Shown piece after piece: positions 3,160 to 17,500 of a stretch of DNA of 64,000 nt. The notes below the pieces were generated by a model. That model had not been told where the DNA came from and searched no databases. It saw nothing but the letters and a program-made list of their open reading frames with translations. Numbering within the stretch: the first letter of the stretch is position 1; each line of letters opens with the position of its first letter. Source of the DNA: Nitrospirota bacterium. Lineage in GTDB: Bacteria > Nitrospirota > UBA9217. The stretch spans positions 128,001-192,000 of the forward strand of contig CAVUHW010000026.1 of the NCBI GenBank assembly GCA_963741205.1, given 5' to 3'. A program made the translations under genes and the position numbers.

Positions 3160-4189
3160 CTAAGCCAGCTCAGCCAGCCTTCTGATCAGCCGTTCGCTGT
3201 CCTTCCAGCCCAGGCACGGATCGGTGATGGATTTGCCGTACACGTTTTCGGACACCTTCTGCGCGCCTTCCTCGATGAAGCTCTCGATCATGAAGCCTTT
3301 CACCATCTTCCGCACGAGCTCGGAATTTTCGCGCGTCCGCATGACTTCTTTTGCGATCCGCGGCTGCTCCTTGTACTGCTTGTTCGAGTTGGCGTGGTTC
3401 GTGTCCACGATGATGGCGGGGTAGGCGAAGGCCCGTTCCTTGTACGCCTTGGCGACCCTGATCAGGTCTTCGAAATGATAGTTGGGGATGCTCTGTCCGA
3501 ACTGGTTCATCGCCCCCCGGAGCACGCAGTGGGTCAGCGGGTTTCCGGAAGTCTTGACCTCCCACCCGTTGTAACTGAACACGTGCGGTGCCTGGGACGC
3601 CTGAACCGCGTTGAACATCACATCAATGTCGCCGGAGATCGGATTTTTCATGCCCACGGGGACGTCGAGGCCGCTGCAGGTCAGGCGGTGCTGCTGGTTT
3701 TCCACCGAGCGCGCGCCGACCGCCACGTAGGACAGAACATCTTCCAGATACGCATAGTTGTTGGGATAGAGCATTTCATCGGCTGCCGGGAAGATGGGAT
3801 TCCTTGAGCGCCCGGATGTGCATCTTCCGGATGGCCTTGATCCCCTCGACGATGTTCGGCTCTTCCTTCGGGTTCGGCTGGTGCGCCATGCCCTTGTAAC
3901 CGATGCCGGTCGTGCGGGGCTTGTTGGTATAGATGCGGGGGATGATGACGATCTTGTCCTTCACCTCATCCTGAACCTTCGCGAGCCGTGAGATATAATC
4001 GCACACAGCGTCCTCGTCGTGGGCCGAGCAGGGCCCGATGATAAGAAGGAGTTTGTCCAGGTCGCCGGTGAATACGCCCTGGATTTCCCTGTCCTTCTCT
4101 TTTTTGATCCTTTTCATATCCGCCGAAAGCGGCATCTTTTCGATGATATCTTTGGCTTTCGGGATCTGCCGGATATTTGAGAAGCTCAT
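3160..4189 (-). CDS. aroG: 3-deoxy-7-phosphoheptulonate (DAHP) synthase class I-alpha; frameshift near 3780
   Basis: IGPCSAHD, RIYTNKPRTTGIGYKG, GARSVENQQHR, GMKNP, DTNHANS, SITDPCLGW. Confidence 0.9.
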
Positions 4190-4380
4190 AGGCTTTGTAA
4201 TACCTCCCCTTCTTTCAATTACCGCTTGCGACACTCGCCGGATGCATTTTTTTGATTATAAGAACCCCCATAAGGTAAGTCAAGATAAAAACTGTCTCTA
4301 CCGGGCCGTGAGTGAGTCCCGCGTCCGCAGATCAAAAAACGCTGGCCTTTTCTCTCGTAATATTGTATATAAAGCGTGCC

Positions 4381-6564: not shown

Positions 6565-7090
6565 CTATGGCCAATAACTAACAAAGCCGTCTCGGTTCGG
6601 CATTTTAACCTGAGGGAGCGTTTTTGCGTCCATCCGCACCTCCGGGTCTATAATGCCGTTGAGGAAAAGAAGGTACGCGCTCACCGCGTAAACTTCGTCG
6701 TTCGAAAGGGACTGAGGAGCATTGAAAGGCATGGCCCTGCGAATATAGTCGAACAGCGTGGTCGCGTAGGGCCAATAGCTCCCGACGGTTTTTACCGGTT
6801 TCTTCGAGGCCAGCGTGCCTATCCCTCCCACGAGGGGATCGGCGGGTCCTTCTATACCCTTCACCCCATGACAACCGGCGCACTTCGCGTTATAAACAGC
6901 TTCTCCTTCGGCAGCCGTACCACTACCGGGAGGAAGTCCGCTTCCATCGGGCGGAATACTGATATCCCAGGCGGCAATTTCTTCGGGCATGACTTCTTGG
7001 CCGAGATTGGGACTGGAGAAGGCAGTTCTGGTAACGAAAATAACGGCAGCCAGTCAGAACGAGGACTCTCAAGAGTTTATTGGTAGACAT
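6565..7090 (-). CDS. monoheme cytochrome c, SoxD-like partner; frameshift in the signal region
   Basis: WDISIPPDGSGLPPGSG, CAGCH, TVGSYWPYATTLFDYIRRAMP, MPNRDGF; ATG 7090 overlaps the soxC stop. Confidence 0.85.
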
Positions 7091-8408
7091 TTCGGATCAC
7101 TCCTTCCGGGCTTATACTCCAGGTCTGAATCGCATTGTAGTGATATTCGTTAGCTACCGAATACTGAGCACGTCCATTTTTCACGGGTGGGCTGGATGTT
7201 CCCTTTCTCATCCGCGGCCCGGCTTTGGAGCAATACGGGGCCCCCATCCCAATTCCAGGGAACACGAAACCGGGTCAGCGCCAGCGGGAGAACTGGAGCT
7301 TGCAGCGCCGCTTTGGCCCAGCTCTTGCCGCCGTCTGCGGAGACCTCCACCTGGGTGATGCGGCCGGAGCCGGACCAGGCGAGACCCGATACTTCGTAAA
7401 AACCCTTCCCCTTCATGGTCATGCCCGCGGAAGGATGAGTAATGACCGACTTGACCCCCATGGGAAAGGTGAACTGACGGGCTCTTCCATCCGGCATCAA
7501 ATCGGTATACTTCGAGGTTTCTTCCCGGCTATAAATAGGTTTTTCCGTGACCGTCAGCCGGCGGAGCCATTTGACGGACATATTCCCCTCCCAGCCCGGC
7601 AGCAGGAGCCGCAGGGGGTAGCCTTGTTCAGGACGGATACGCTCGCCGTTCTGGTAAAGGGCGATCATGGCATCATCCAGGGCTTTCTCGATGGGAATAC
7701 TCCGGTTCATAGCGGCAGCGTCTCCGGCTTCGGCCACGATCCATTTGCCCTTGGGGTCCAATCCGGCTTCGTCCAGCAATAAAGCCAGAGGGATACCCGT
7801 CCATTCGCAGCACGAAATCAGCCCATGGATAGCCCCACAGGACATTTGAGGTGGTTCCGGTCTGGTATTGAAAAGGCTGTTGCCTGAACATTCCAAAAAG
7901 AAGATCCGGCTTACGGTGGGATACCGTAACAACGCCTCGACGGAGAATTTCAGCGGCCTTTTGACTAGGCCATGGATGAGCAGCTCATGCTTGGTGGGAT
8001 CGATGTCCGGAACGCCGCTGTGATGTCGCTCGTAGTGCAACCCGTTCGGCGTGATCGTACCCTGGAGCTGATGCAGCGGAGTCATGGACATCGCGGCACC
8101 TGGAGCAATATCCTTGTATCGCTGGTAGAAGATCCGCTTGACCTCCGTCTTCATATTTGGCAGGGTTGACCATAACCCCGGAACGGCTGTCCGGGTATCT
8201 TCATCCACGGAGGGGTTTCCAGCGCCGGAGACTCCGCTGCTTGCGCCGTCGCCAAAAGATCACCCGAAAGATTGCCTGCCGCCACCAATCCGGCCACCTT
8301 GACCGCGCCTGTCAGAAAGGCCCGACGGTCGAGCAGACCCCGGTCTGCTGCGGGTGCAGGCAGTTCCGTTGTTACTTTTCTTTTTGATATTTTCCACCTG
8401 GATGTCAT
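7077..8408 (-). CDS. soxC: SoxC-like sulfite-oxidase-family molybdoprotein, Tat-exported; two frameshifts
   Basis: DRRAFL Tat motif, TPNGLHYERHH, FLECSGN (Mo-Cys), EQGYPLRL, GWEGNMSVKWL, GLAWSG, YHYNAIQTW. Confidence 0.85.
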
Positions 8409-8506
8409 CGCCCGCCTCCTATCTCTTTAACCATTACGACCGAAATGGAAGGACAAAGGTTGCTAAACCTGCACATCGTTTCGATGAAAACTTTTGAAAA
8501 ATCTGC

Positions 8507-9898
8507 TCACTGGGCAGTAACCGGTTCATATCCAAAATCCAGCGCATTCCCCAGATCATTCGCGGCGGCATCGCGAGTCCCGAGCGGCGCAATATTCCAA
8601 CGTTTTTCGATAAACTTCAAAATAGAGGTTGTATCGTACAGGGTGTGGTCAACATACCCTTTCTTCGCAAACGGAGAGATAATGATTGTCGGAATCCTGG
8701 TTCCCGGCCCCCACCGGTCGCCTTTCGGCGGCGCGACGTGGTCCCATCGGCCGCCGTTTTCATCATAGGTGATGATAATCACGCTGTCCTTCCAGTACGG
8801 GCTCTCCCTGAGCGTCTTGACCAGTTCCGCGACGTGCTGTTGCCCGGCAAGAAGCGATGCATAGCCAGGATGTTCATTGAACGCACCGATGGGCTTTATA
8901 AATGATACCGAGGGCAGGGTACCATTTTTAAGGTCTTTTAAAAACTCCTGTTCGTCTTTTAGATGAGCGCCTCTTGCCGGAGTCCCGTCAGAATAGTTCG
9001 CGAAATAAGCAAAGGGCTGATGATGGTACTGAAAATACTTGTCAGCTTTCCCGGCAAGCGCATCACTCCAGCCTCCTGAATACCACGCCCAGGAAATGTT
9101 TTTTTCCGTCAGCCGGTCTCCAATGGTCGGCATGGTTTGATTCGGCAGGAGTTTACACCGGTCCCCCGCTTTATCCGGGTGCGGCTGGTTCACGGAATAA
9201 ACCGTATTGACAGCGTACCCGTCAGGCGTGATCGCGCCGTCCTGCAGGAGTGTTCCGTTCGAATCGAGCTTTGCAACCAGGGACAGAGGCGCATCAGGCC
9301 AGGCCGGCGTACAGGCGCAGATGAGCCAGAAATGATTCAGGAAGGACCCGCCGAAGGCAGCCTGAAAAAAGTTGTCCGCGATCGTGTATTGGCGCGCAAG
9401 CTTCCCCTCGGGAAGATCGCTCGCGTCGAAATAGCTCATGACCAGTCCGGGGTTGTCGCTCCAGGCGGCGAATTTATCCATTTTGCCGCCGTCGATCTGC
9501 AGCTGGTTCTGATAAAATCGGTGAACAAGGTCCCCTGTTTTCTGATCAATGGAAAGATACTGCAAAAGATCATACGGTTTCGCCGGTATATTTTCAGGAA
9601 AACGCCCGTCATGAACCGCCGGCTTTGAGCTCGTGTCCAGCGGCCCCGGTAATGCCGCCAAAGGTTCCCCTTCCTTGTCCACCTGGTTTACTGCGTTTCC
9701 CGCATTTGCGAGCCCGTTTGCGCCGGGGAACTTTCCGTACAAGCCGTCAAAACTCCAGTTCTCCTGGTAAATAACGACAACGTGTCCGATTTTTTCGAAT
9801 GCCTTCGATGGAACTTCCGCCGGAGCCGGAAAGGGATACAAAAACAGGAAGGCGAAGAACAGTGTTAGCACGCTTCGGATGCGGTGTGAATGGAACAC
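8507..9898 (-). CDS. secreted acid phosphatase / phosphoesterase (AcpA / non-hemolytic PLC family)
   Basis: signal peptide; HVVVIYQENWSFD, GDLVHRFY, FGGSFLNH, FQYHHQPF, NEHPGY, YDENGGRWDH, YDTTSIL. Confidence 0.9.
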   Translation of the reverse strand: MFHSHRIRSVLTLFFAFLFLYPFPAPAEVPSKAFEKIGHVVVIYQENWSFDGLYGKFPGANGLANAGNAVNQVDKEGEPLAALPGPLDTSSKPAVHDGRFPENIPAKPYDLLQYLSIDQKTGDLVHRFYQNQLQIDGGKMDKFAAWSDNPGLVMSYFDASDLPEGKLARQYTIADNFFQAAFGGSFLNHFWLICACTPAWPDAPLSLVAKLDSNGTLLQDGAITPDGYAVNTVYSVNQPHPDKAGDRCKLLPNQTMPTIGDRLTEKNISWAWYSGGWSDALAGKADKYFQYHHQPFAYFANYSDGTPARGAHLKDEQEFLKDLKNGTLPSVSFIKPIGAFNEHPGYASLLAGQQHVAELVKTLRESPYWKDSVIIITYDENGGRWDHVAPPKGDRWGPGTRIPTIIISPFAKKGYVDHTLYDTTSILKFIEKRWNIAPLGTRDAAANDLGNALDFGYEPVTAQ

Positions 9899-10224
9899 TC
9901 TCTCCTCCCATTCTTAACCGAGAAGCAAGGCAATAGCAGCGCGGGATTCCCAGAATACTCATGTTCTGGGAACTGAACAGCACTAAGTGGAACGATTTTA
10001 GTATGGCCTGATCTTTTTGTAAAGAAAATAACAGGAATATTGCTTTTGAGATTTCATTCTCCGATAGGGGTGATTGCCGGGGTATTCACGCCGAGGTAAC
10101 GGGCGATAGCCGCCGTGGTTAGCGAATTCTACTCCGCCCGCGCACAGCAATGCGCGCCCCTATGTCGCTCACTTTCCTGCGCTGCGAGGTGGGACAGTGG
10201 AGTTGCGGCAGGTCAAAGGATTGG

Positions 10225-11922
10225 TCAAAACTTATAGGTAATCAATGCTGTTCCGTCGAATCTGCGATACACATCGGCGATTTTGTAATACGACCCTTCG
10301 GCCGTAAGATAGAGCGATGGGCCGACCTTCACGCTATAGGCCAGATCGAGGTCCAGACCGGCATTCCATTCGTCTCCGTCGGAATGCCTCCGCGTGTATT
10401 GGAAACTGGGTCCGACAATCAAGCGCAGTTCACTGTCCGGTTGAAGCCGATAGGTGGCCTCCAGATGGAGCGCGTTGTTTACGAAAAGGTCCGGGCTGAA
10501 ATAACCTCCCGCAAAGGGCGCGTTATTACTGTCAACAAACCCCGAGTTGTCCTGACTGTAATGGGCTATCTGAAATTTATAGAAGAGAGCAAAAGCAAAT
10601 GCTCCCTCATTGAAGAAATGGAATCTGGCATCGGCGTCAGCGCCGACCAATGAGTTATTGTTTGTTGTATTCGAGCTGACATAGCCTGCATACGGCATCG
10701 CCGAGGCCTGGATCCGCTCACCTTGAAACGCAAGCCTGCAAAATGCGGTATTCGACCTGGCAGCGCCGATCTTCCGCCCCGTCACGCTGTCCGTATCTCC
10801 GGCAATGGCAAGCAGGGAGTCGTATTTGAACGCGCGCCTGATTCCCGGGGTGATCAGCACCCTGCCCTGTTCAGTCGAATATTGGACGAGAAATTCGCTG
10901 TCGCTCTCCGCGTCCTTAAAATCGTGGTACTTCAGCTCCGCGTCTATCCGGCGTGTGGGATCGAAACGGCCCTGCAGCCTCAGTTTATAAAAGGTGCCAT
11001 CGACAGTGGTTTCGTCGTGGCGGTATTTTTCCAGGCCGATTTCTGCCTCGCCGGTCAAAAATGGCGTTATATCCGCCTGGCCGCCTGCGTTCAGCAAATA
11101 GCCGGAGTAAGCGTAATGGCTGTCATCGCTCGACTGCTTGAAATAGGTGAAGCCCGTCTTTATCCGGGGTTCGCGGCCCTGCATGAGATCATCCCGGATA
11201 TGTTTTGCGGACTTGTCCTGTGAATCGTAGCGGAGCGCAAGCTTGGAGTGATAAATGGCGCGATCGTTATCTCCCCGCCAGGCATAGGCAGCGGCCAGTT
11301 CACGATGAGCGGCGCTGTTTCCCGGATTCCGGTCTACCAGGATTTGATACTGCTCGATTGCCTGGTCGATTGTTTCATGGTGCGCGGCAAGAAGCCGGGC
11401 ATATTCCAAACGGACACTGGCATCACCGGGTTTGGCACGCACGAGCAGCTTATATTCAGCGACGGCCTCATCAAAGGTACCCCTCTCCCCGGCCAGCAGC
11501 CTTGCCAGCCGGTGCCGGTTTTCGTAATCTGACTTGTGTTTCAGTCCCATGCGGTAATATTGGATGGCATCTTTTCTCCGGTAGGAAAACCTCGCGTCTT
11601 CAAGGTATCTTGCCTGCTTGAAGGCAATGTCGGCATCGTTGGGGAAGCGCTGCAAATAGCGGTCATAATGCTCAATCGCTTTATCGGTGAGGCCCTGCAA
11701 TTCATAAGCACGCCCGAGGAGCCGCATCGCCTCTTGATTGTCGGGATTAAGCGCAACCAGTTTTTCAAATGACTCAATGGCCGCCTTGTAGTTCTCGATT
11801 TCCATGTTGGCCTTGCCCCGTGACATATACCAGTTTTCTTTGATGTCGGCGTGCACTGCCGTCGCCAGGCAAAGCGACGCGATCATCGCGGCAATTGCCG
11901 CATAAAAAATAGATTTCATCAT
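10225..11922 (-). CDS. TPR + outer-membrane beta-barrel polysaccharide export protein, BcsC-like
   Basis: signal peptide MMKSIFYAAIAAMIASLCLATAVHA; several TPRs; beta-strand C-terminal half with DSLLAIAGDTDSVTGRKIG and GGYFSP (BcsC-like) and terminal Phe (LITYKF). Confidence 0.75.
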   Translation of the reverse strand: MMKSIFYAAIAAMIASLCLATAVHADIKENWYMSRGKANMEIENYKAAIESFEKLVALNPDNQEAMRLLGRAYELQGLTDKAIEHYDRYLQRFPNDADIAFKQARYLEDARFSYRRKDAIQYYRMGLKHKSDYENRHRLARLLAGERGTFDEAVAEYKLLVRAKPGDASVRLEYARLLAAHHETIDQAIEQYQILVDRNPGNSAAHRELAAAYAWRGDNDRAIYHSKLALRYDSQDKSAKHIRDDLMQGREPRIKTGFTYFKQSSDDSHYAYSGYLLNAGGQADITPFLTGEAEIGLEKYRHDETTVDGTFYKLRLQGRFDPTRRIDAELKYHDFKDAESDSEFLVQYSTEQGRVLITPGIRRAFKYDSLLAIAGDTDSVTGRKIGAARSNTAFCRLAFQGERIQASAMPYAGYVSSNTTNNNSLVGADADARFHFFNEGAFAFALFYKFQIAHYSQDNSGFVDSNNAPFAGGYFSPDLFVNNALHLEATYRLQPDSELRLIVGPSFQYTRRHSDGDEWNAGLDLDLAYSVKVGPSLYLTAEGSYYKIADVYRRFDGTALITYKF

Positions 11923-11930
11923 AGGGGTTC

Positions 11931-14900
11931 TCAGAAGGTAAAACCTGCCGCGTAAAAATTGGGTAAAATATTTTTCCGGTAAACCATGCGCATCGGTCTT
12001 TGTTCCGGCTCGCCTCCAAGGATTTGCCATTCACCGTCCGGATCGATGTGCTTCGCGAAAAAGAAGAGTTTTCTGCCCTTTGTGGACTGGTTGCGCAACA
12101 GGGCCCGAATGCTGGATGCCGTTATGAGAGAGCCTCGTCAGCCGGAACCGGGAGCGCCGGACCTCCGTGCGGTTGAGCGTGACGGAGGGGAGAAAAGAGT
12201 TGACAATCCCTTTCAGGAAATAGTATCCCATCATCAGGTTGCTGCCGGTCTGGCCCGCGTGCGCGTTTTTCCACGTATTCGCATCGGCAAAGGTGCGCAA
12301 CAAGAGCTCCCTTTTAGGCCCGGGATCCAGATCGGTGAAACTCACGCCGCACCGGACCGGGCCTCCGTGCCTTCGGTCCTGATACACTCGCCGGGCCGTA
12401 ATGGCAATTGGTTTCTCGTCGAATAATTCCAGGGTCGCCGATGATGGAATGCGGACATCCCGTTCAGGCACAAAGGATGCGCCCGTCAGGCTGATATCGT
12501 GCAGTCTGCCCTCCAATAGGAAGCCGTCCGCTGTCAATCGAAACGGCGCGGCGATGTTTATTCTTTCGCTTTGACGTCTTTGGGGCCTTTCCCAGGCCAT
12601 AAGAAGCGCCACCAGTAAAAAGACGAAATTGTACACCGCCCACCCAAGGTTAATAAAATAGGCCTCCTTTTCGACTCCGAAATAGGTAAATTCTATTATT
12701 CCCTTTATGATCGCAAAAAGGGTAATCGCCGCGGCGATCAGCGTTACCCAGGAGGATGACAAATCAAATTTTCTGGTATCGGAGGTGATGCCTTTGGGAG
12801 TCACCTTGAAGGCCAGCTTCCGGGGTAAAACCAGCTCGAATAAGGACAGAAACAGCGGGAAAGCGACGGCGTTTTCATAGACCACCCCCCAGAACATGCG
12901 CGGCCATCTCTGAAGCAGCGCCGAGGAAAGCAGCGGCAGGCATATCATATACGGAATGAGACGGGCCAAAAGAATTGAAACATCGGAAAAGATCGGGTGC
13001 AGGTGAAAGAGCAGATAGTAGAGCGGCGTAATCCAGAAAACAATTCTGACGATGGGGAAGAAAAAGTAGAATAAGGATGCAAAATAGCCGATCCGGTGAC
13101 GTAATCCCAACCCTTTTTGAAACATCGGGTTATTCTTGAAAAAAATCTGGAGGCAGCCTTGCATCCAGCGCTTTCGCTGCACAATGTAGGACGCGTAATC
13201 CTCCGCAGCGAGTCCCACGGCCAGGTCCTTGTCCACAAAAACAGAGGTATAGCCCTCTGCGTGCAGATGCTGGCTGCTGTGGATGTCTTCGGTGATGCTC
13301 ATCAGTTTGAAACCGCCTATTTTTTCCAGCGCTTTTCTTCGAAACACGGCCCCGCTGCCGACAAAGAAGGCCCCTTCCCAGTTGTTCCTTCCCCCCTGGA
13401 TGCCGTGGTTAAACATGTCTTGTTCATTGGGAACACGCCGTCCGACTCGAAAGGCCCTCTGAAAAATATCGTTGTTATAAAAATGGTGCGGTGTTTGTAC
13501 GACGCCGACCTTCGGGTCATGGAAGAACATTACGGTTTCGTCCAGAAAAGAAGAGACCGGGATATGATCGGTATCGAAGACAACGATCAGGTCTCCGCCC
13601 GTAATTGCCAATGCATTGTTCAGGTTGCCTGCCTTGGCATGCCGGCGCGGCCCCTTGATATAGGTGGCGCCATGTTCAATCGCCAGGTCGCGCACAGCAT
13701 CACGATGACTGTCGTCGAGGATGAAAACGGTTTTATGGGGGTACCTCATCGCGCAGGCCGCGGCCAGGGTCTTTTCCAAAATATCGAGAGATTCAGAGTA
13801 GATGGGGATATAAATATCCACGGACGGCGTATAATTATCGATCGGTGTTGTTTTTTTCTTCTTCTTTTTTAAATTAAGGCCGACCTGGACCAAAAGGAGA
13901 ACAACTGTTGTCAAGCAATAGAACTCCGCAATCCACAGCGAGATACTGATGAAAGGTCCCAGCGTTTCCCGAAAGTTCAGCGTAAAATTGAGACGCCACC
14001 ACAGGTACAGGAAGCAGATCGTAAACCCGCAGGCAAGCAATGCCACTTTAACGACTTTATGGAGGGCTTCCTGTTTCACCTTCAGGAGAAAATAGAGCAG
14101 AATGAAAATCAGTGTCAGCGCCCAGGGAAAGTGCCGCCAAAACCCCTTGGGATCCACCGGCTCGATAAAATCAAAAAAAGCCAGATAATTGCGCGCGACC
14201 CCGGCTTCGAAGGCACGGCCGAACCAGAGCCAGTTGTGCAGGTAATAGGGCGTTTCTTTGTCGGCCAGGGCATTTTTCCAGAGCCCGGTCAACTTCCTGG
14301 TATAGATCTCTTTGGCCAGTCCAGGGTCTTCAATGACGGCCAGCGCCTGAACCGTTGCATACAGCGGAAGGGCTTCAAGCTCGGATCGAGCCTGGCCCTG
14401 CGGGGTATATCGATCAACTATTTTCCCTTGCTGTTTCCATCGGGTTTGGAAAAAAGCCAGCATGGCCCTTCTGAGCTTGCCCTTGCTTCTTCCATGCCAC
14501 TGCGCATCCATGGCGATGCGCCAATAGAGGGGAAAGGCATCATAGCTGAAAAGGGCCTGCCGGTCGTCGTTGGATTTATCGATAAAGAGCCGGCCTGAAT
14601 CCTTGTTCACATAAATTACCTGGGGCGGCAAGGCCACGCCCTGATCGAAATACAGCCATTCTAATATTTCGTACGAGGAATCGATCAGCGCCCCCCAAGG
14701 ATGGCGATGGTCCACCTGCGCAAAGAGCCCGTAGGCATAGGGCGCCAGATAGCCGACGTGGATGGCGGGAAATTTTTCCTGGGGCGCCCAGTCGCCCGCG
14801 GTCGGAAAATACTTTTCGTTGATTTTGATGATTTCCTTGCGCCAGATATCGTCCAGGATGCGCAGGGCGTCGTCTCGATAGCCGGCAATGGAAAATTTCT

Positions 14901-15300
14901 CACTCGCCAGTAAAAGCGCCAGTGCAATGTCCGTGTCCGCATCGGTCGCCGAATTGTTGTCCTGTTTCCATTTCCACGCAAACAGGTGGTCGCCCCTTGT
15001 CATCAGGTGCGTTTTCGTCCATTGATAAACCTGCTGAAACGTCTGACGGTCATTGGTCCATACCGCGCGAAGCATTGCATAGCTCTCACCTTCGGAGGTG
15101 GTGATGCCGTTTTCATCCCAACTGATCACGCGGCCGTCTTTCACGTACGTGTACTTATAGAAATTCCACAATTCATGCAGGCTGTTGAGCTGTTGCAGAG
15201 ATTGGTCGTTTGCATATGCGGTCTTTGCGGAAAAGAGGCAAAGAAAGACTATTCCTAAAAGGAAGACCCTGCGACAGGATTGAAGAACAACGTTAACCAT
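11931..15300 (-). CDS. bcsA: fusion of GH8 endoglucanase (BcsZ-like), cellulose synthase catalytic domain (BcsA, GT2) and PilZ; probable second PilZ after a frameshift near 12105
   Basis: GH8: TTSEGESY, NSATDAD, FSYDAFP. GT2: LDDS, HAKAGNLN, FDTDH, QTPHHF, FFVGS, ITED, QRKRW, FKVTPKG. PilZ: RRQSER, DISLTG. A shifted frame continues LRNQSTKG...YAAGFTF-stop at 11931. Confidence 0.88.
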
Positions 15301-15503
15301 AATGCTGGAGATGCCTTTCCACGATTCTTCTGCGCAAGGCGCATGCCGGGAGAACCCTCGTATTCATATGACCGCCATCGCCCTTCGTGCGGATATTTCT
15401 CGGAATGGAGCAGCCGATTGTCGGTCTTAAGTCGTTTGGAGGGTGTAGCCGGTATCACAGAGGTGAGGAAAGCCATCATGGAATGGCTCTCCTTCTATCC
15501 AAT

Positions 15504-15555
15504 AAAAAACGAGACGTCCGGCGCCGCGGATTTATACCGCTGCGCCGAAGGTCTC
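15504..15555 (-). terminator. intrinsic terminator forming the riboswitch expression platform
   Basis: minus strand GAGACCTTCGGCGCAGCGG-TATAAAT-CCGCGGCGCCGGACGTCTC followed by GTTTTTT; the 5' arm is the 3' strand of aptamer P1. Confidence 0.75.
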
Positions 15556-15637
15556 GCTCATTGGTTGACGCCAACTGCAGGGCCAGGCTTTGCAGCCAGT
15601 ATGTTGACCCTGTAACGATGGAGCTACTCCCCTTCGG
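15545..15637 (-). ncRNA. yybP-ykoY manganese riboswitch aptamer
   Basis: minus strand CCGAAGGGGAGTAGC...CAGGGTCAACATACTGGC TGCAAA GCC TGGCCCTG...TTGG CGTCAA CCAA TGAGCGAGACCTTCGG; matches the AAGGGGAGUAGC...GUCAAnnnAC...GCRAGACCUU consensus with a CCGAAGG/CCTTCGG P1. Confidence 0.85.
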
Positions 15638-16108
15638 AACTGCTCTTTTTTACCTTAGCTCACGGAAAAAGTCAAGAACTATGATTCGCCGGTGGTCATC
15701 TCCTTGATTTGTCCTTGCCGGAATGTCATCAGCATATCGATGTGACGGCCGGAGTTTATGAGATATTTCATTTTCCCCAAAATACTTCTTGCTATTTACG
15801 ATAAATCCTGTATTATTATGCTCGACTGTTTAACAATGCGGCTGGGATTTGACTGAAGTACCCACACACGTCACCATCTCCCCGCCCTTCATATCATCGA
15901 TCATCAACCCCCCCTTGCTTTCAGCTCCCACTCTGAAATCATAACAGCATATATGGTTGGCGAACGATGTAGTTATGCCGGTCATATCTGTGCTGGCGTC
16001 GTCTTCGCTCTCGGGAATACACATGTGTTCCTGCGGCCCGCACGCAAACCTTTAACGGGATTTCCCTGTCCGCATGAATATTGCTGCCGGGAGAACCAAA
16101 GGAGAATA

Positions 16109-17500
16109 ATGCCTTTTTCAAAACTGCAGCTCATCGAACCGATCCTCAAGGCCATAAAACTGTGCGGCTATACCGCGCCTACGCCCATCCAGGAGCAGGC
16201 CATTCCCAAGGCCCTGGCAGGTCAGGACCTGATCGCAACGGCCCAGACCGGTACCGGGAAAACCGCGGCCTTCGTGATGCCCGCGCTCCAGCGTCTCAGC
16301 GTACCGTCAACCTCCACCAAAAGATCCAAAGGTCCCCGCGTGCTCGTGCTCACGCCCACGCGCGAACTGGCGAACCAGGTGACCGAGGCGGTCAAAACCT
16401 ACGGCAAGTTCATGCGCATCCGAAGCGGTGTTATCCTCGGCGGCATGCCTTATTTCGAACAGCAGCGGCTTCTCTCGCAGCCGGTGGATCTCATCGTCGC
16501 GACTCCCGGGCGGTTGATCGACCACATGGAACGGGGCCGCATCGACTTTTCGCGTCTGGAGCTTCTCATCCTCGACGAAGCGGACCGCATGCTCGACATG
16601 GGCTTCAGCGACGCGGTTGACACCATCGCCGCTGCGACCCCTGCGGACCGCCAGACCCTCATGTTCACGGCGACCATGGACAACGCCATGGCGAAGCTCG
16701 CCCAGCGCCTCCTGAAGGACCCGGTGCGAGTCGAGATCGCGGGAAAAAAGACCACGCTCGAAGCGATCGAGCAGCGGCTCCACGCGGCCGACGACATGCA
16801 GCACAAGAACAGGCTCTTGAACCACCTGATCGCCGACAACGGCATGACCCGGGCGCTCATCTTCTCGGGCACCAAGCGGAACGCCGATCAACTTGCCCGC
16901 GAGCTTACTGCCCAAGGCCACTCCGCGGCCGCCCTGCACGGCGACATGAACCAGAACGCCCGGAACCGCACGATCATGAACATGCGCCGCGGAAAAATCC
17001 GTCTCCTCGTTGCAACGGACGTGGCAGCGCGCGGGCTCGACGTGACCGGCATCACCCATGTGATCAATTACGACCTGCCGAAGAATGCGGAAGACTATGT
17101 CCACCGCATCGGACGCACGGGAAGAGCGGGTGCGTCAGGCATCGCCATCTCCTTCGCGTCGTCAAAAGAAGTAGATTTTCTGCACCAGATCGAACGCTAC
17201 ATAGGACAGACGATCCCCCAGCAGGTGATCCCGGGGCTGGAGCCGTCGCGTCCGTTGCGCCGCTCAAGCGGCGGGAGCAGTCAGGGACCTTCATCAGGCA
17301 AACGCTGGCAGGGGGCTTCGGCAGGCAGGCGCTACGGGCAGAACACCGCGTCAAGAAATCCCTTTGGTTCCAGGACCGACAAAAAGTGGAATGGGGAATC
17401 CCGTTTCAATAATGATGACAAGAAATTCGTCAAGCGCGACGGAGGCAAGTTCGCGGACTTCAAACCGTCCAGACCGGCCCGTCAAAGCCGCTGGGCGTAA
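16109..17500 (+). CDS. DEAD-box RNA helicase (RhlE/CshA-like) with basic C-terminal tail
   Basis: Q-motif PTPIQ, AQTGTGKT, PTRELA, ATPGRL, DEAD, HGDM, ARGLD, HRIGRTGRAG; AAGGAG RBS. Confidence 0.95.
   Translation: MPFSKLQLIEPILKAIKLCGYTAPTPIQEQAIPKALAGQDLIATAQTGTGKTAAFVMPALQRLSVPSTSTKRSKGPRVLVLTPTRELANQVTEAVKTYGKFMRIRSGVILGGMPYFEQQRLLSQPVDLIVATPGRLIDHMERGRIDFSRLELLILDEADRMLDMGFSDAVDTIAAATPADRQTLMFTATMDNAMAKLAQRLLKDPVRVEIAGKKTTLEAIEQRLHAADDMQHKNRLLNHLIADNGMTRALIFSGTKRNADQLARELTAQGHSAAALHGDMNQNARNRTIMNMRRGKIRLLVATDVAARGLDVTGITHVINYDLPKNAEDYVHRIGRTGRAGASGIAISFASSKEVDFLHQIERYIGQTIPQQVIPGLEPSRPLRRSSGGSSQGPSSGKRWQGASAGRRYGQNTASRNPFGSRTDKKWNGESRFNNDDKKFVKRDGGKFADFKPSRPARQSRWA

Follow-up and report, generated by a model that had tools for sequence, protein, structure and literature searches.

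Can a bacterial cellulose synthase carry its own cellulase in the same polypeptide chain, and can such an enzyme work without BcsB? The question is raised by a stretch of 64,000 nucleotides (the window) from a Nitrospirota bacterium (assembly GCA_963741205.1, contig CAVUHW010000026.1, positions 128,001–192,000). Here, a stop-free open reading frame (ORF) of 1089 amino acids (aa) on the minus strand, 12031–15300, fuses a glycoside hydrolase family 8 (GH8) domain to a BcsA-type synthase. Canonical BcsZ is a free soluble periplasmic protein, whereas the GH8 domain of this ORF is covalently joined to the synthase. According to PMC8892547, the tail of BcsB, composed of an amphipathic helix and a transmembrane (TM) anchor, is indispensable for polymerisation by BcsA and fits into a groove between TM1–3. 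The fusion gene is real and, together with a porin gene directly downstream, it probably constitutes a widespread two-gene, BcsB-independent module for β-glucan synthesis and export with a cis-tethered cellulase. The product is most likely a β-1,4-glucan, i.e. cellulose.

The fusion gene and its relatives

Proteins related to the fusion are numerous. In a collection of 5.8 billion proteins, 685 of the 8000 scored candidates match it. The best 120 of these 685 matches all contain GH8 and glycosyltransferase family 2 (GT2) families, 118 of them also contain PilZ, and their lengths range from 787 to 1214 aa. A HMMER search against representatives clustered at 50% identity gave few fused clusters (P0124, P0129, P0133 plus a further four, longer ones), ranked above ordinary BcsA proteins with no more than 42% identity. 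In contigs sampled at one genome per species, a relative is encoded in 128 of 139 candidate stretches. Of these 128 loci, 80 were kept for synteny and phylum counts; they belong to Nitrospirota (36), Myxococcota (24), Thermodesulfobacteriota (3), Fibrobacterota (3), Spirochaetota (2), Pseudomonadota (2) and Bdellovibrionota (2), with no phylum given for eight. The carriers include the complete chromosome of Nitrospira moscoviensis and four Anaeromyxobacter isolates. Database names for the fused proteins are only ‘glycosyl hydrolase family 8’ or ‘cellulose synthase (UDP-forming)’.

A trivial explanation would be that separate bcsZ and bcsA genes were wrongly joined by assembly or gene calling. 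The assembly does contain frame breaks, located at about 12113, in a DAHP-synthase-family gene at 3160–4234 and in GGDEF genes found in pieces; these breaks, however, split genes and do not join them. The junction between the GH8 domain and the first TM helix (about 14083–14145) is a conserved in-frame linker. It is bridged with no frame break by contigs of relatives from other, public runs, namely record 23 of X4 (corresponding to 12772–14312), record 15 of X3 (13930–14302) and record 7 of X2 (13891–14130). The fused architecture recurs in the best 120 relatives, which come from many sources, and in the 128 genomic loci, the N. moscoviensis chromosome among them. A joining artefact has next to no probability.

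In a FastTree phylogeny of the synthase part (57 rows, 731 columns), 20 fused proteins and one row of 747 aa form one clade with an SH-like support of 100, and 36 unfused BcsA proteins fall outside it. The 747-aa row (P0130) is unfused and nests within the fused clade, representing either a truncated gene call or a secondary loss. The existence of one fused clade, apart from the unfused BcsA, fits a single origin of the fusion.

The ESM Atlas contains three clusters named GH8, which can be taken as leads only; among the three families given per cluster, two of them (161 and 61 members) have both GH8 and GT2, and the third (86 members) has GT2 families only. The 61-member cluster, with proteins of about 867 aa and Actinomycetota as the commonest phylum, may be a second, shorter hydrolase–synthase fusion.

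Domains, topology and the absence of BcsB

In the 1089-aa ORF, Pfam detects Glyco_hydro_8 (PF01270) at residues 20–334 (E 1e-34, 120.6 bits with a cut-off of 24), GT2 families at residues 494–766, Cellulose_synt at residues 664–864 and PilZ (PF07238) at residues 907–999 (E 4e-12). The best NCBIfam synthase model is CelA (TIGR03030), with 527.6 bits over residues 395–1024, which does not reach the equivalog cut-off of 699.1. The NCBIfam models of BcsA (NF008558, 401.6 bits) and BcsZ (NF008305, 91.1 bits) also stay under their cut-offs, 992 for the former and 299, an equivalog cut-off, for the latter.

Motif conservation was scored in 64 aligned sequences, comprising 60 fused relatives and four unfused BcsA proteins. 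The catalytic motifs quoted in the initial annotation are all present and conserved in this set. In the GH8 motifs TTSEG (E70), SATDAD (D120/D122) and SYDAF (D254), the numbered residues are each at least 90% conserved. The synthase motifs DD (529/530), DTD (576–578), TED (670–672), QRKRW (708–712), HAKAGN, QTPH and FFVGS, as well as the gating loop FKVTPK, are invariant or at least 90% conserved; FFVGS corresponds to the canonical FFCGS. The first PilZ domain keeps RRxxxR (909/913) and DxSxxG (935–940), where R909, R913 and G940 are invariant and S937 is at least 90% conserved. In the GH8 alignment, E70 pairs with the position of the catalytic Glu of Clostridium thermocellum CelA (Gln in the mutant chain 1kwf), and D120/D122 and D254 pair with TDAD and YDA in GH8 enzymes of known structure (CelA 1cem/1kwf, CMCax 1wzz, BcsZ 3qxf). 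Judged by sequence, the catalytic motifs and those for binding cyclic dimeric guanosine monophosphate (c-di-GMP) are all intact in the fusion ORF, and the GH8 domain is predicted to be catalytically competent.

An AlphaFold 2 (AF2) model was made of an intact relative (P0004), 88% identical to the fusion protein, using a 64-row alignment; the mean predicted local distance difference test score (pLDDT) is 89.5 and the predicted template modelling score (pTM) is 0.79. The model is similar to Rhodobacter sphaeroides BcsA 4p00_A (Foldseek E 1e-40, TMt 0.79; VIA Z 38.6, 661 aligned, root-mean-square deviation 3.9) and to Escherichia coli BcsA 9b8v_E (VIA Z 44.9). Comparison with GH8 structures gives VIA Z scores of 34–40, including 36 for BcsZ 3qxf/9b87 and 39.6–39.7 for CelA.

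According to the hydropathy scan and the AF2 model, three TM helices (about 391–407, 412–437 and 449–475) lie between the GH8 and glycosyltransferase (GT) domains, and the GT domain is followed by another four to five helices of TM or interface type. With an odd number of TM helices before the GT domain, the topology puts GH8 on the periplasmic side of the membrane and GT and PilZ on the cytoplasmic side. A periplasmic GH8 domain, membrane-tethered beside the synthase, had been proposed in the initial annotation; it is supported by the predicted Sec-type signal, by the three TM helices before the cytoplasmic GT domain and by the AF2 model. The single linker TM helix described there is, in fact, one of the three. 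TM1 of R. sphaeroides BcsA is missing; its place in the model is occupied by the poorly conserved signal helix, and in several alignments this N-terminal helix pairs with the TM1 region of BcsA, from chain residue 15 onwards. The helix has a pLDDT of 62–73, a conservation of 0.30 and AxA-type ends, a combination that makes it look like a cleavable signal peptide. Lipobox-like sites were noticed by eye at the N-terminus of about eight of the 60 relatives.

The helix following the GH8 domain had also been suggested to replace the BcsB membrane anchor and thereby to activate BcsA. BcsB, with its reportedly indispensable tail, is absent here, and the helix is oriented out-to-in, like the BcsB anchor, after a short conserved linker that contains a helix. 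By both sequence and structure, however, this helix (391–407) is TM2 of BcsA itself. HMMER pairs residue 400 of the query with chain residue 50 of 4hg6_A, and VIA superimposes model residues 384..1038 on residues 35..726 of 4hg6_A; HMMER alignments to canonical BcsA begin only at residues 397–400. When the AlphaFold model is overlaid on Rhodobacter BcsA, the helix falls on TM2. As TM2 is also present in BcsB-dependent enzymes, it cannot be a substitute for BcsB; moreover, the mature protein has no extra helix, and one TM helix fewer than R. sphaeroides BcsA. Replacement of the anchor by this helix is quite improbable. The 27-residue segment located before TM2 (366–392) has no counterpart in canonical BcsA; its conservation is 0.69, compared to 0.70 for the GH8 domain and 0.30 for the signal. 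This juxtamembrane segment could act at the periplasmic membrane face, where the amphipathic helix of BcsB acts.

The initial annotation had noted no bcsB, bcsG or bcsE in the window, and this can be extended to the whole 4.27-Mb assembly, where no match to BcsB (PF03170), BcsG or BcsE was found, the assembly being 84.5% complete and the Pfam BcsB model being one that could miss a very divergent BcsB. The genome contains one BcsA-like gene only and one GH8 gene only. The BcsQ model gives two weak matches on other contigs of this genome; the same model has matches in 14 of 14 control genomes. Across 51 carrier genomes, with completeness reported for the window's own genome only, a Pfam BcsB match occurs in one: none in the own genome, none in a first set of five that includes complete N. 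moscoviensis and three Anaeromyxobacter isolates, and one in a further set of 45. The lone match lies directly after a separate canonical bcsA-like gene, on a different contig from the fusion. The fused system seems to work without BcsB.

The predicted porin partner, the likely product and related systems

The initial annotation had overlooked a BcsC-like gene located directly downstream of the fusion gene. This gene encodes a predicted porin composed of tetratricopeptide repeats (TPRs) and a β-barrel. Its real start is probably MMKSIF at 11922; the ORF listing runs the gene to 12030 because of the frame break upstream. Pfam detects TPR families at residues 68–284 and BCSC_C (PF05420; 34.9 bits, cut-off 23.5). 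The NCBIfam BcsC model NF008520 gives 40.7 bits, under its cut-off of 858. A profile of 26 partner proteins matches E. coli BcsC 9b8a_A (E 3e-21) and 6tzk_A (E 1.6e-9), in both cases over the barrel.

In a tblastn search of the 80 kept loci with six query proteins, the partner gene was found in 71, and all nine loci without it are contigs that end at the fusion gene. In 69 of the 71 loci, the partner immediately follows the fusion gene in the same orientation; the exceptions are L077, where it is located upstream, and L050, where the locus is rearranged. No third gene is conserved across lineages in the 80 loci; the next real clusters comprise at most 13 loci and are lineage-specific. The acid phosphatase gene at 8507–9898 was considered as a further member of the module and rejected, having no counterpart in these loci.

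At L050:4855-13262, two inverted partial copies of the fusion and the TPR gene face each other, indicating a rearranged or misassembled locus. Ten loci (L009, L010, L012, L013, L014, L016, L018, L022, L032 and L044) have an aldose 1-epimerase gene directly upstream on the same strand, at about 6700–7900; nine are from Nitrospira/Nitrospiraceae and one (L032) is from a Myxococcota metagenome-assembled genome (MAG). This gene is possibly a lineage-specific addition to the operon.

In some Myxococcota, the fusion gene and its partner constitute one ORF (L055, L068 and P0125–P0128). L055:7947-12932 and L068:7995-12980 are from Myxococcota MAGs, and such single ORFs encode 1517–1996 aa with GH8, BcsA and porin parts; Pfam detects PilZ in two of the four proteins P0125–P0128. 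At the junction, the C-terminal helix of the synthase is followed by a signal-like hydrophobic stretch ending in AHA|EG and then by mature TPR/barrel sequence. The product of the single ORF may be one chain that serves both membranes, or a polyprotein that signal peptidase cleaves. These ORFs provide a Rosetta-stone link between synthase and porin. A predicted complex of the GH8 domain with the TPR/barrel protein scored 0.01 against a mark of 0.32, which counts neither for nor against an interaction.

These data suggest the following scheme. The first gene would encode an inner-membrane, c-di-GMP-gated, processive synthase of the BcsA type, with a GH8 domain in the role of BcsZ built into its periplasmic N-terminus. 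Judging from synteny, fusion and homology, the second gene would encode a short BcsC-like TPR/β-barrel porin through which the chain crosses the outer membrane. Binding of c-di-GMP to PilZ would open the gating loop; the GT domain, by homology, would polymerise uridine diphosphate (UDP)-glucose and push the chain through the TM channel. The topology suggests that the chain emerges beside the tethered GH8 domain, which may cut chains that miss the porin, or release or terminate chains, as a cis version of the trans role of free BcsZ; it might alternatively limit chain length. The synthase would need no BcsB tail.

Several points weigh against this scheme. Both halves of the fusion protein score below the NCBIfam equivalog cut-offs, so substrate and linkage are not secured. 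Non-cellulase GH8 structures score equally well against the model (5xd0, Z 40.2; 7xgq, Z 38.0), and the family includes lichenases, xylanases and chitosanases. Cleavage of the signal peptide is only predicted, and the limits of the BcsB search given above apply. Near its 3′ end, the copy in the window carries a frame break, and it may be impaired in this organism. The product, the activity, the BcsB independence and the role of the GH8 domain are all what we infer.

Some of these points would also fit a different or shorter product: a mixed-linkage or other β-glucan or, if the cis GH8 domain cuts every chain, soluble cello-oligosaccharides in place of fibrils. Besides the scores under the equivalog cut-offs, the best structural GH8 match is a β-1,3-1,4-glucanase (5xd0_A), level with CelA, and FFCGS is replaced by FFVGS; an endoglucanase permanently tethered at the exit would also be expected to limit chain length. 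As for the linkage, however, CelA is by far the best NCBIfam match (the PgaC model gives 73 bits, compared to 527.6), and the hallmark motifs of cellulose synthases and the gating loop are all kept. As for the length, a porin of the BcsC type, dedicated to this system, suggests that a polymer is exported, and canonical systems also pair BcsA with a GH8 enzyme and still make long chains. Such a different or shorter product is unlikely.

A bolder proposal goes beyond the probable two-gene cellulose module. The module might be a natural minimal cellulose secretion machine, in which GH8 and the linker do at the periplasmic mouth of the channel what BcsB otherwise does there as co-catalyst and guide, tandem PilZ domains set the c-di-GMP threshold and one myxobacterial branch makes hydrolase, synthase and porin as a single polypeptide. 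Taken as a whole, this proposal is speculative and has perhaps one chance in a few of being right.

The canonical system of BcsA–BcsB, free BcsZ and BcsC, known from E. coli, Salmonella and R. sphaeroides (4hg6/4p00, 9b8v, 3qxf, 6tzk), shares with the fused system the GT2 core, the PilZ gate, the GH8 enzyme and the TPR/barrel porin. It differs in that, here, GH8 is placed on the N-terminus of the synthase, a signal peptide stands in place of TM1 and BcsB is absent. The porin is about half the length of canonical BcsC (565 aa, compared to the 1146-aa chain 9b8a_A) and lacks the long N-terminal TPR array. Unlike canonical BcsA, the fused family carries a second PilZ-like domain at the C-terminus.

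The pair PgaB–PgaA has a deacetylase/hydrolase working at a TPR porin. The hydrolase domain of the ascidian cellulose synthase is presumably GH6-like and C-terminal; this enzyme is eukaryotic and has neither PilZ nor a porin partner. PMC8892547 describes this glycosyl hydrolase domain as residing in the same polypeptide as the ascidian synthase, PelA–PelB as coupling a hydrolase to the TPR-porin export step, and a cyanobacterial synthase with an HlyD-like partner and TolC as also lacking BcsB, as well as BcsC and BcsK. In PelA–PelB and PgaB–PgaA, the TPR protein on the outer-membrane side is where the hydrolase docks, whereas in the fused family the hydrolase is tethered to the inner-membrane synthase. 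The cyanobacterial system uses the HlyD/TolC route in contrast to the BcsC-like barrel found here, and its synthase has no fused hydrolase.

Fusions of neighbouring bcs components are described in PMC7112194 and PMC6252331; they include BcsAB polypeptides (Komagataeibacter AcsAB, Zymomonas, Acidobacteria) and Zymomonas BcsZC, which links the hydrolase to another subunit of the machinery. In contrast to these A+B and Z+C fusions, the present proteins are Z+A, and Z+A+C in some Myxococcota, with BcsB absent. In the bcs classification, as given in PMC8892547, types are built on a BcsAB core, with BcsD marking type I, BcsE/BcsG type II and BcsK type III. None of the types I–III is matched, as BcsB, BcsE and BcsG are absent from the window's own genome; BcsD and BcsK were not searched for. 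No description of a GH8–BcsA (Z+A) fusion was found in the full-text literature searched, which does not cover Romling and Galperin 2015, so an earlier mention is possible. The parts belong to known families, and the Z+A arrangement without BcsB is outside the described types.

The fused family touches on two questions: for what reason cellulose secretion requires a cellulase and at which site that enzyme acts, and why BcsA needs the BcsB tail for catalysis. As for the first, a 2026 preprint (10.64898/2026.08.24.745826) concludes that E. coli BcsZ is probably not a stable component of the complex and proposes that it clears mislocalised chains. With a cellulase permanently located at the synthase and with BcsB absent, the fused family is a natural construct for both questions. 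Culturable carriers (N. moscoviensis and several Anaeromyxobacter species) and the presence of two genes only make it a tractable minimal system for reconstitution and structural work. The module may, in addition, account for the matrix and flocs that nitrite oxidisers form.

The 3′ end of the fusion gene and its genomic setting

Table 1. Features of the fusion gene and its partner (positions in the window; residues of the fusion protein unless stated otherwise).
Feature	Position	Strand	Basis
Fusion gene: signal peptide, GH8, 3 TM, GT2 (BcsA) core, 4–5 TM/interface helices, PilZ, C-terminal helices, out-of-frame tail	12031..15300	-	ORF, Pfam, NCBIfam
Predicted N-terminal Sec-type signal peptide, residues 1–31, ...SAKTAYA|ND	15208..15300	-	sequence, hydropathy scan, AF2 model
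GH8 (α/α)6 endoglucanase domain, about residues 33–365; E70, D120/D122, D254	14206..15204	-	PF01270, alignments to GH8 structures
Juxtamembrane linker, residues 366–392, family consensus YDEFLGFLRPFDxxGFxxHFPW	14125..14205	-	conservation 0.69; not alignable to canonical BcsA
Three TM helices, about 393–407, 412–437 and 449–473, equivalent to R. sphaeroides BcsA TM2–TM4	13882..14124	-	hydropathy scan, HMMER, AF2 model, VIA
GT-A glycosyltransferase domain, residues 494–722; DD, DxD, TED, QxxRW, HAKAGN, QTPH, FFVGS	13135..13821	-	Pfam, NCBIfam, alignments, structure
Channel-forming TM and interface helices with gating loop FKVTPK, residues 723–902	12595..13134	-	alignment, hydropathy, AF2 model
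Canonical BcsA PilZ domain, residues 903–1000; RRxxxR and DxSxxG	12301..12594	-	PF07238, E 4e-12
Frame break, one extra base compared to close relatives, about codon 1062–1063	12111..12113	-	tblastn frame switch; contigs of relatives
Second, divergent PilZ-like domain, split over two frames; stop TGA of relatives at 11931–11933	11931..12180	-	tblastn, hhalign, Foldseek
Partner gene: signal peptide, about 6 TPRs, BcsC-type β-barrel, 565 aa from MMKSIF	10225..11922	-	Pfam, profile search, synteny

One uninterrupted frame had been reported for 11931–15300. This is correct for 12031–15300; the 3′ part contains a frame break of one nucleotide at about 12111–12113 (Table 1). The stop codon of the fusion ORF is located at 12031–12033, and the TGA at 11931 belongs to another frame. 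Relatives are about 40 residues longer, and in tblastn comparisons with the window their C-termini switch frame after about codon 1062 and reach the TGA at 11931–11933. Letter 12113 is absent from all three covering contigs (two from X3 and one from X4, representing two studies), which are 90–95% identical to the window and originate from relatives, not from the source sample; no public run covers more than 0.13 of the words. The break, which is not located in a homopolymer, separates RxxxR from NxSxxG in the second PilZ domain. Without the extra base, the gene would encode about 1126 aa and end at 11931.

In intact relatives, the last 75 residues or so form a six-stranded β-domain (pLDDT 85–92 in the full AF2 model). 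A profile of 27 such domains matches the profile of the first PilZ domain in hhalign (83.5%, E 8e-6, 85 columns); an Arg-rich stretch pairs with RRxxxR, and (D/N)xSxxG pairs with DxSxxG. Pfam PilZ matches the second domain weakly in four of the 27 sequences (best E 0.005). In a Foldseek search with a separate model of the domain (pLDDT 77.9), the top rows are PilZ domains, but with E of 0.02–0.6.

The frame break, which would cost the window copy its second PilZ domain, represents an error of assembly or else a recent lesion. Split genes occur elsewhere in the assembly too. The DAHP-synthase-family gene (3160–4234, minus strand) occupies two adjacent ORFs, covering profile positions 8–84 and 95–268, which suggests assembly indel errors or a pseudogene. 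GGDEF matches occur in two or three adjacent pieces or with a stop at C6:159178-159644, C14:69149-69623, C31:77188-77672 and C30:157459-157884 of the same genome. Such further split genes favour indel errors as the cause of the break at 12113.

This genome probably obtained the module by horizontal transfer. In 14 other genomes of the same genus, no match to the fusion protein was found at E ≤ 1e-20, and among 40 relative genomes it is present in one other, from the phylum sample (G082, 55% identity). The guanine and cytosine (GC) content is 0.515–0.538 over 8001–16000, compared to about 0.56–0.62 in most other 2-kb bins; the low-GC stretch spans the synthase gene, the porin gene and the acid phosphatase gene (TIGR03397, 501 bits). 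Absence from the genus and low GC content fit horizontal acquisition.

The copy could be a decaying pseudogene, with a real break in a recently acquired, non-functional passenger module. This would agree with the extra base relative to all three covering contigs, with its position between two motifs of the second PilZ domain and outside a homopolymer run, and with the lack of the module in the 14 other genomes of the genus that were searched. Against this, codons 1 to 1060 are uninterrupted, they match an intact relative at 88% identity and no catalytic motif is lost; the other split genes, among them a DAHP-synthase-family gene of a type that is normally essential, point to indel errors. Decay of the copy is a serious possibility, though the less probable one.

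Between the fusion gene and a divergent DEAD-box helicase gene (15953–17500) lies a non-coding gap of 650 bp (15301–15952). An Rfam search of 15200–16050 gave nothing near the gathering score, the best match being a Mn riboswitch with 19 bits against 45. A promoter and terminator scan of 9800–16000 was not above shuffled sequences (8 promoter-like sites, compared to 5.0 ± 2.2; 3 terminator-like sites, compared to 8.2). The genome has 23 GGDEF matches, so c-di-GMP signalling is available. In another genome of the same family as the window (G070), GH8 and BcsA are separate proteins, each 33% identical to the fused protein. Their ORFs, of 359 and 827 aa, are located on the same strand at G070:C48:5941-10788, about 2.4 kb apart, and represent an unfused arrangement.

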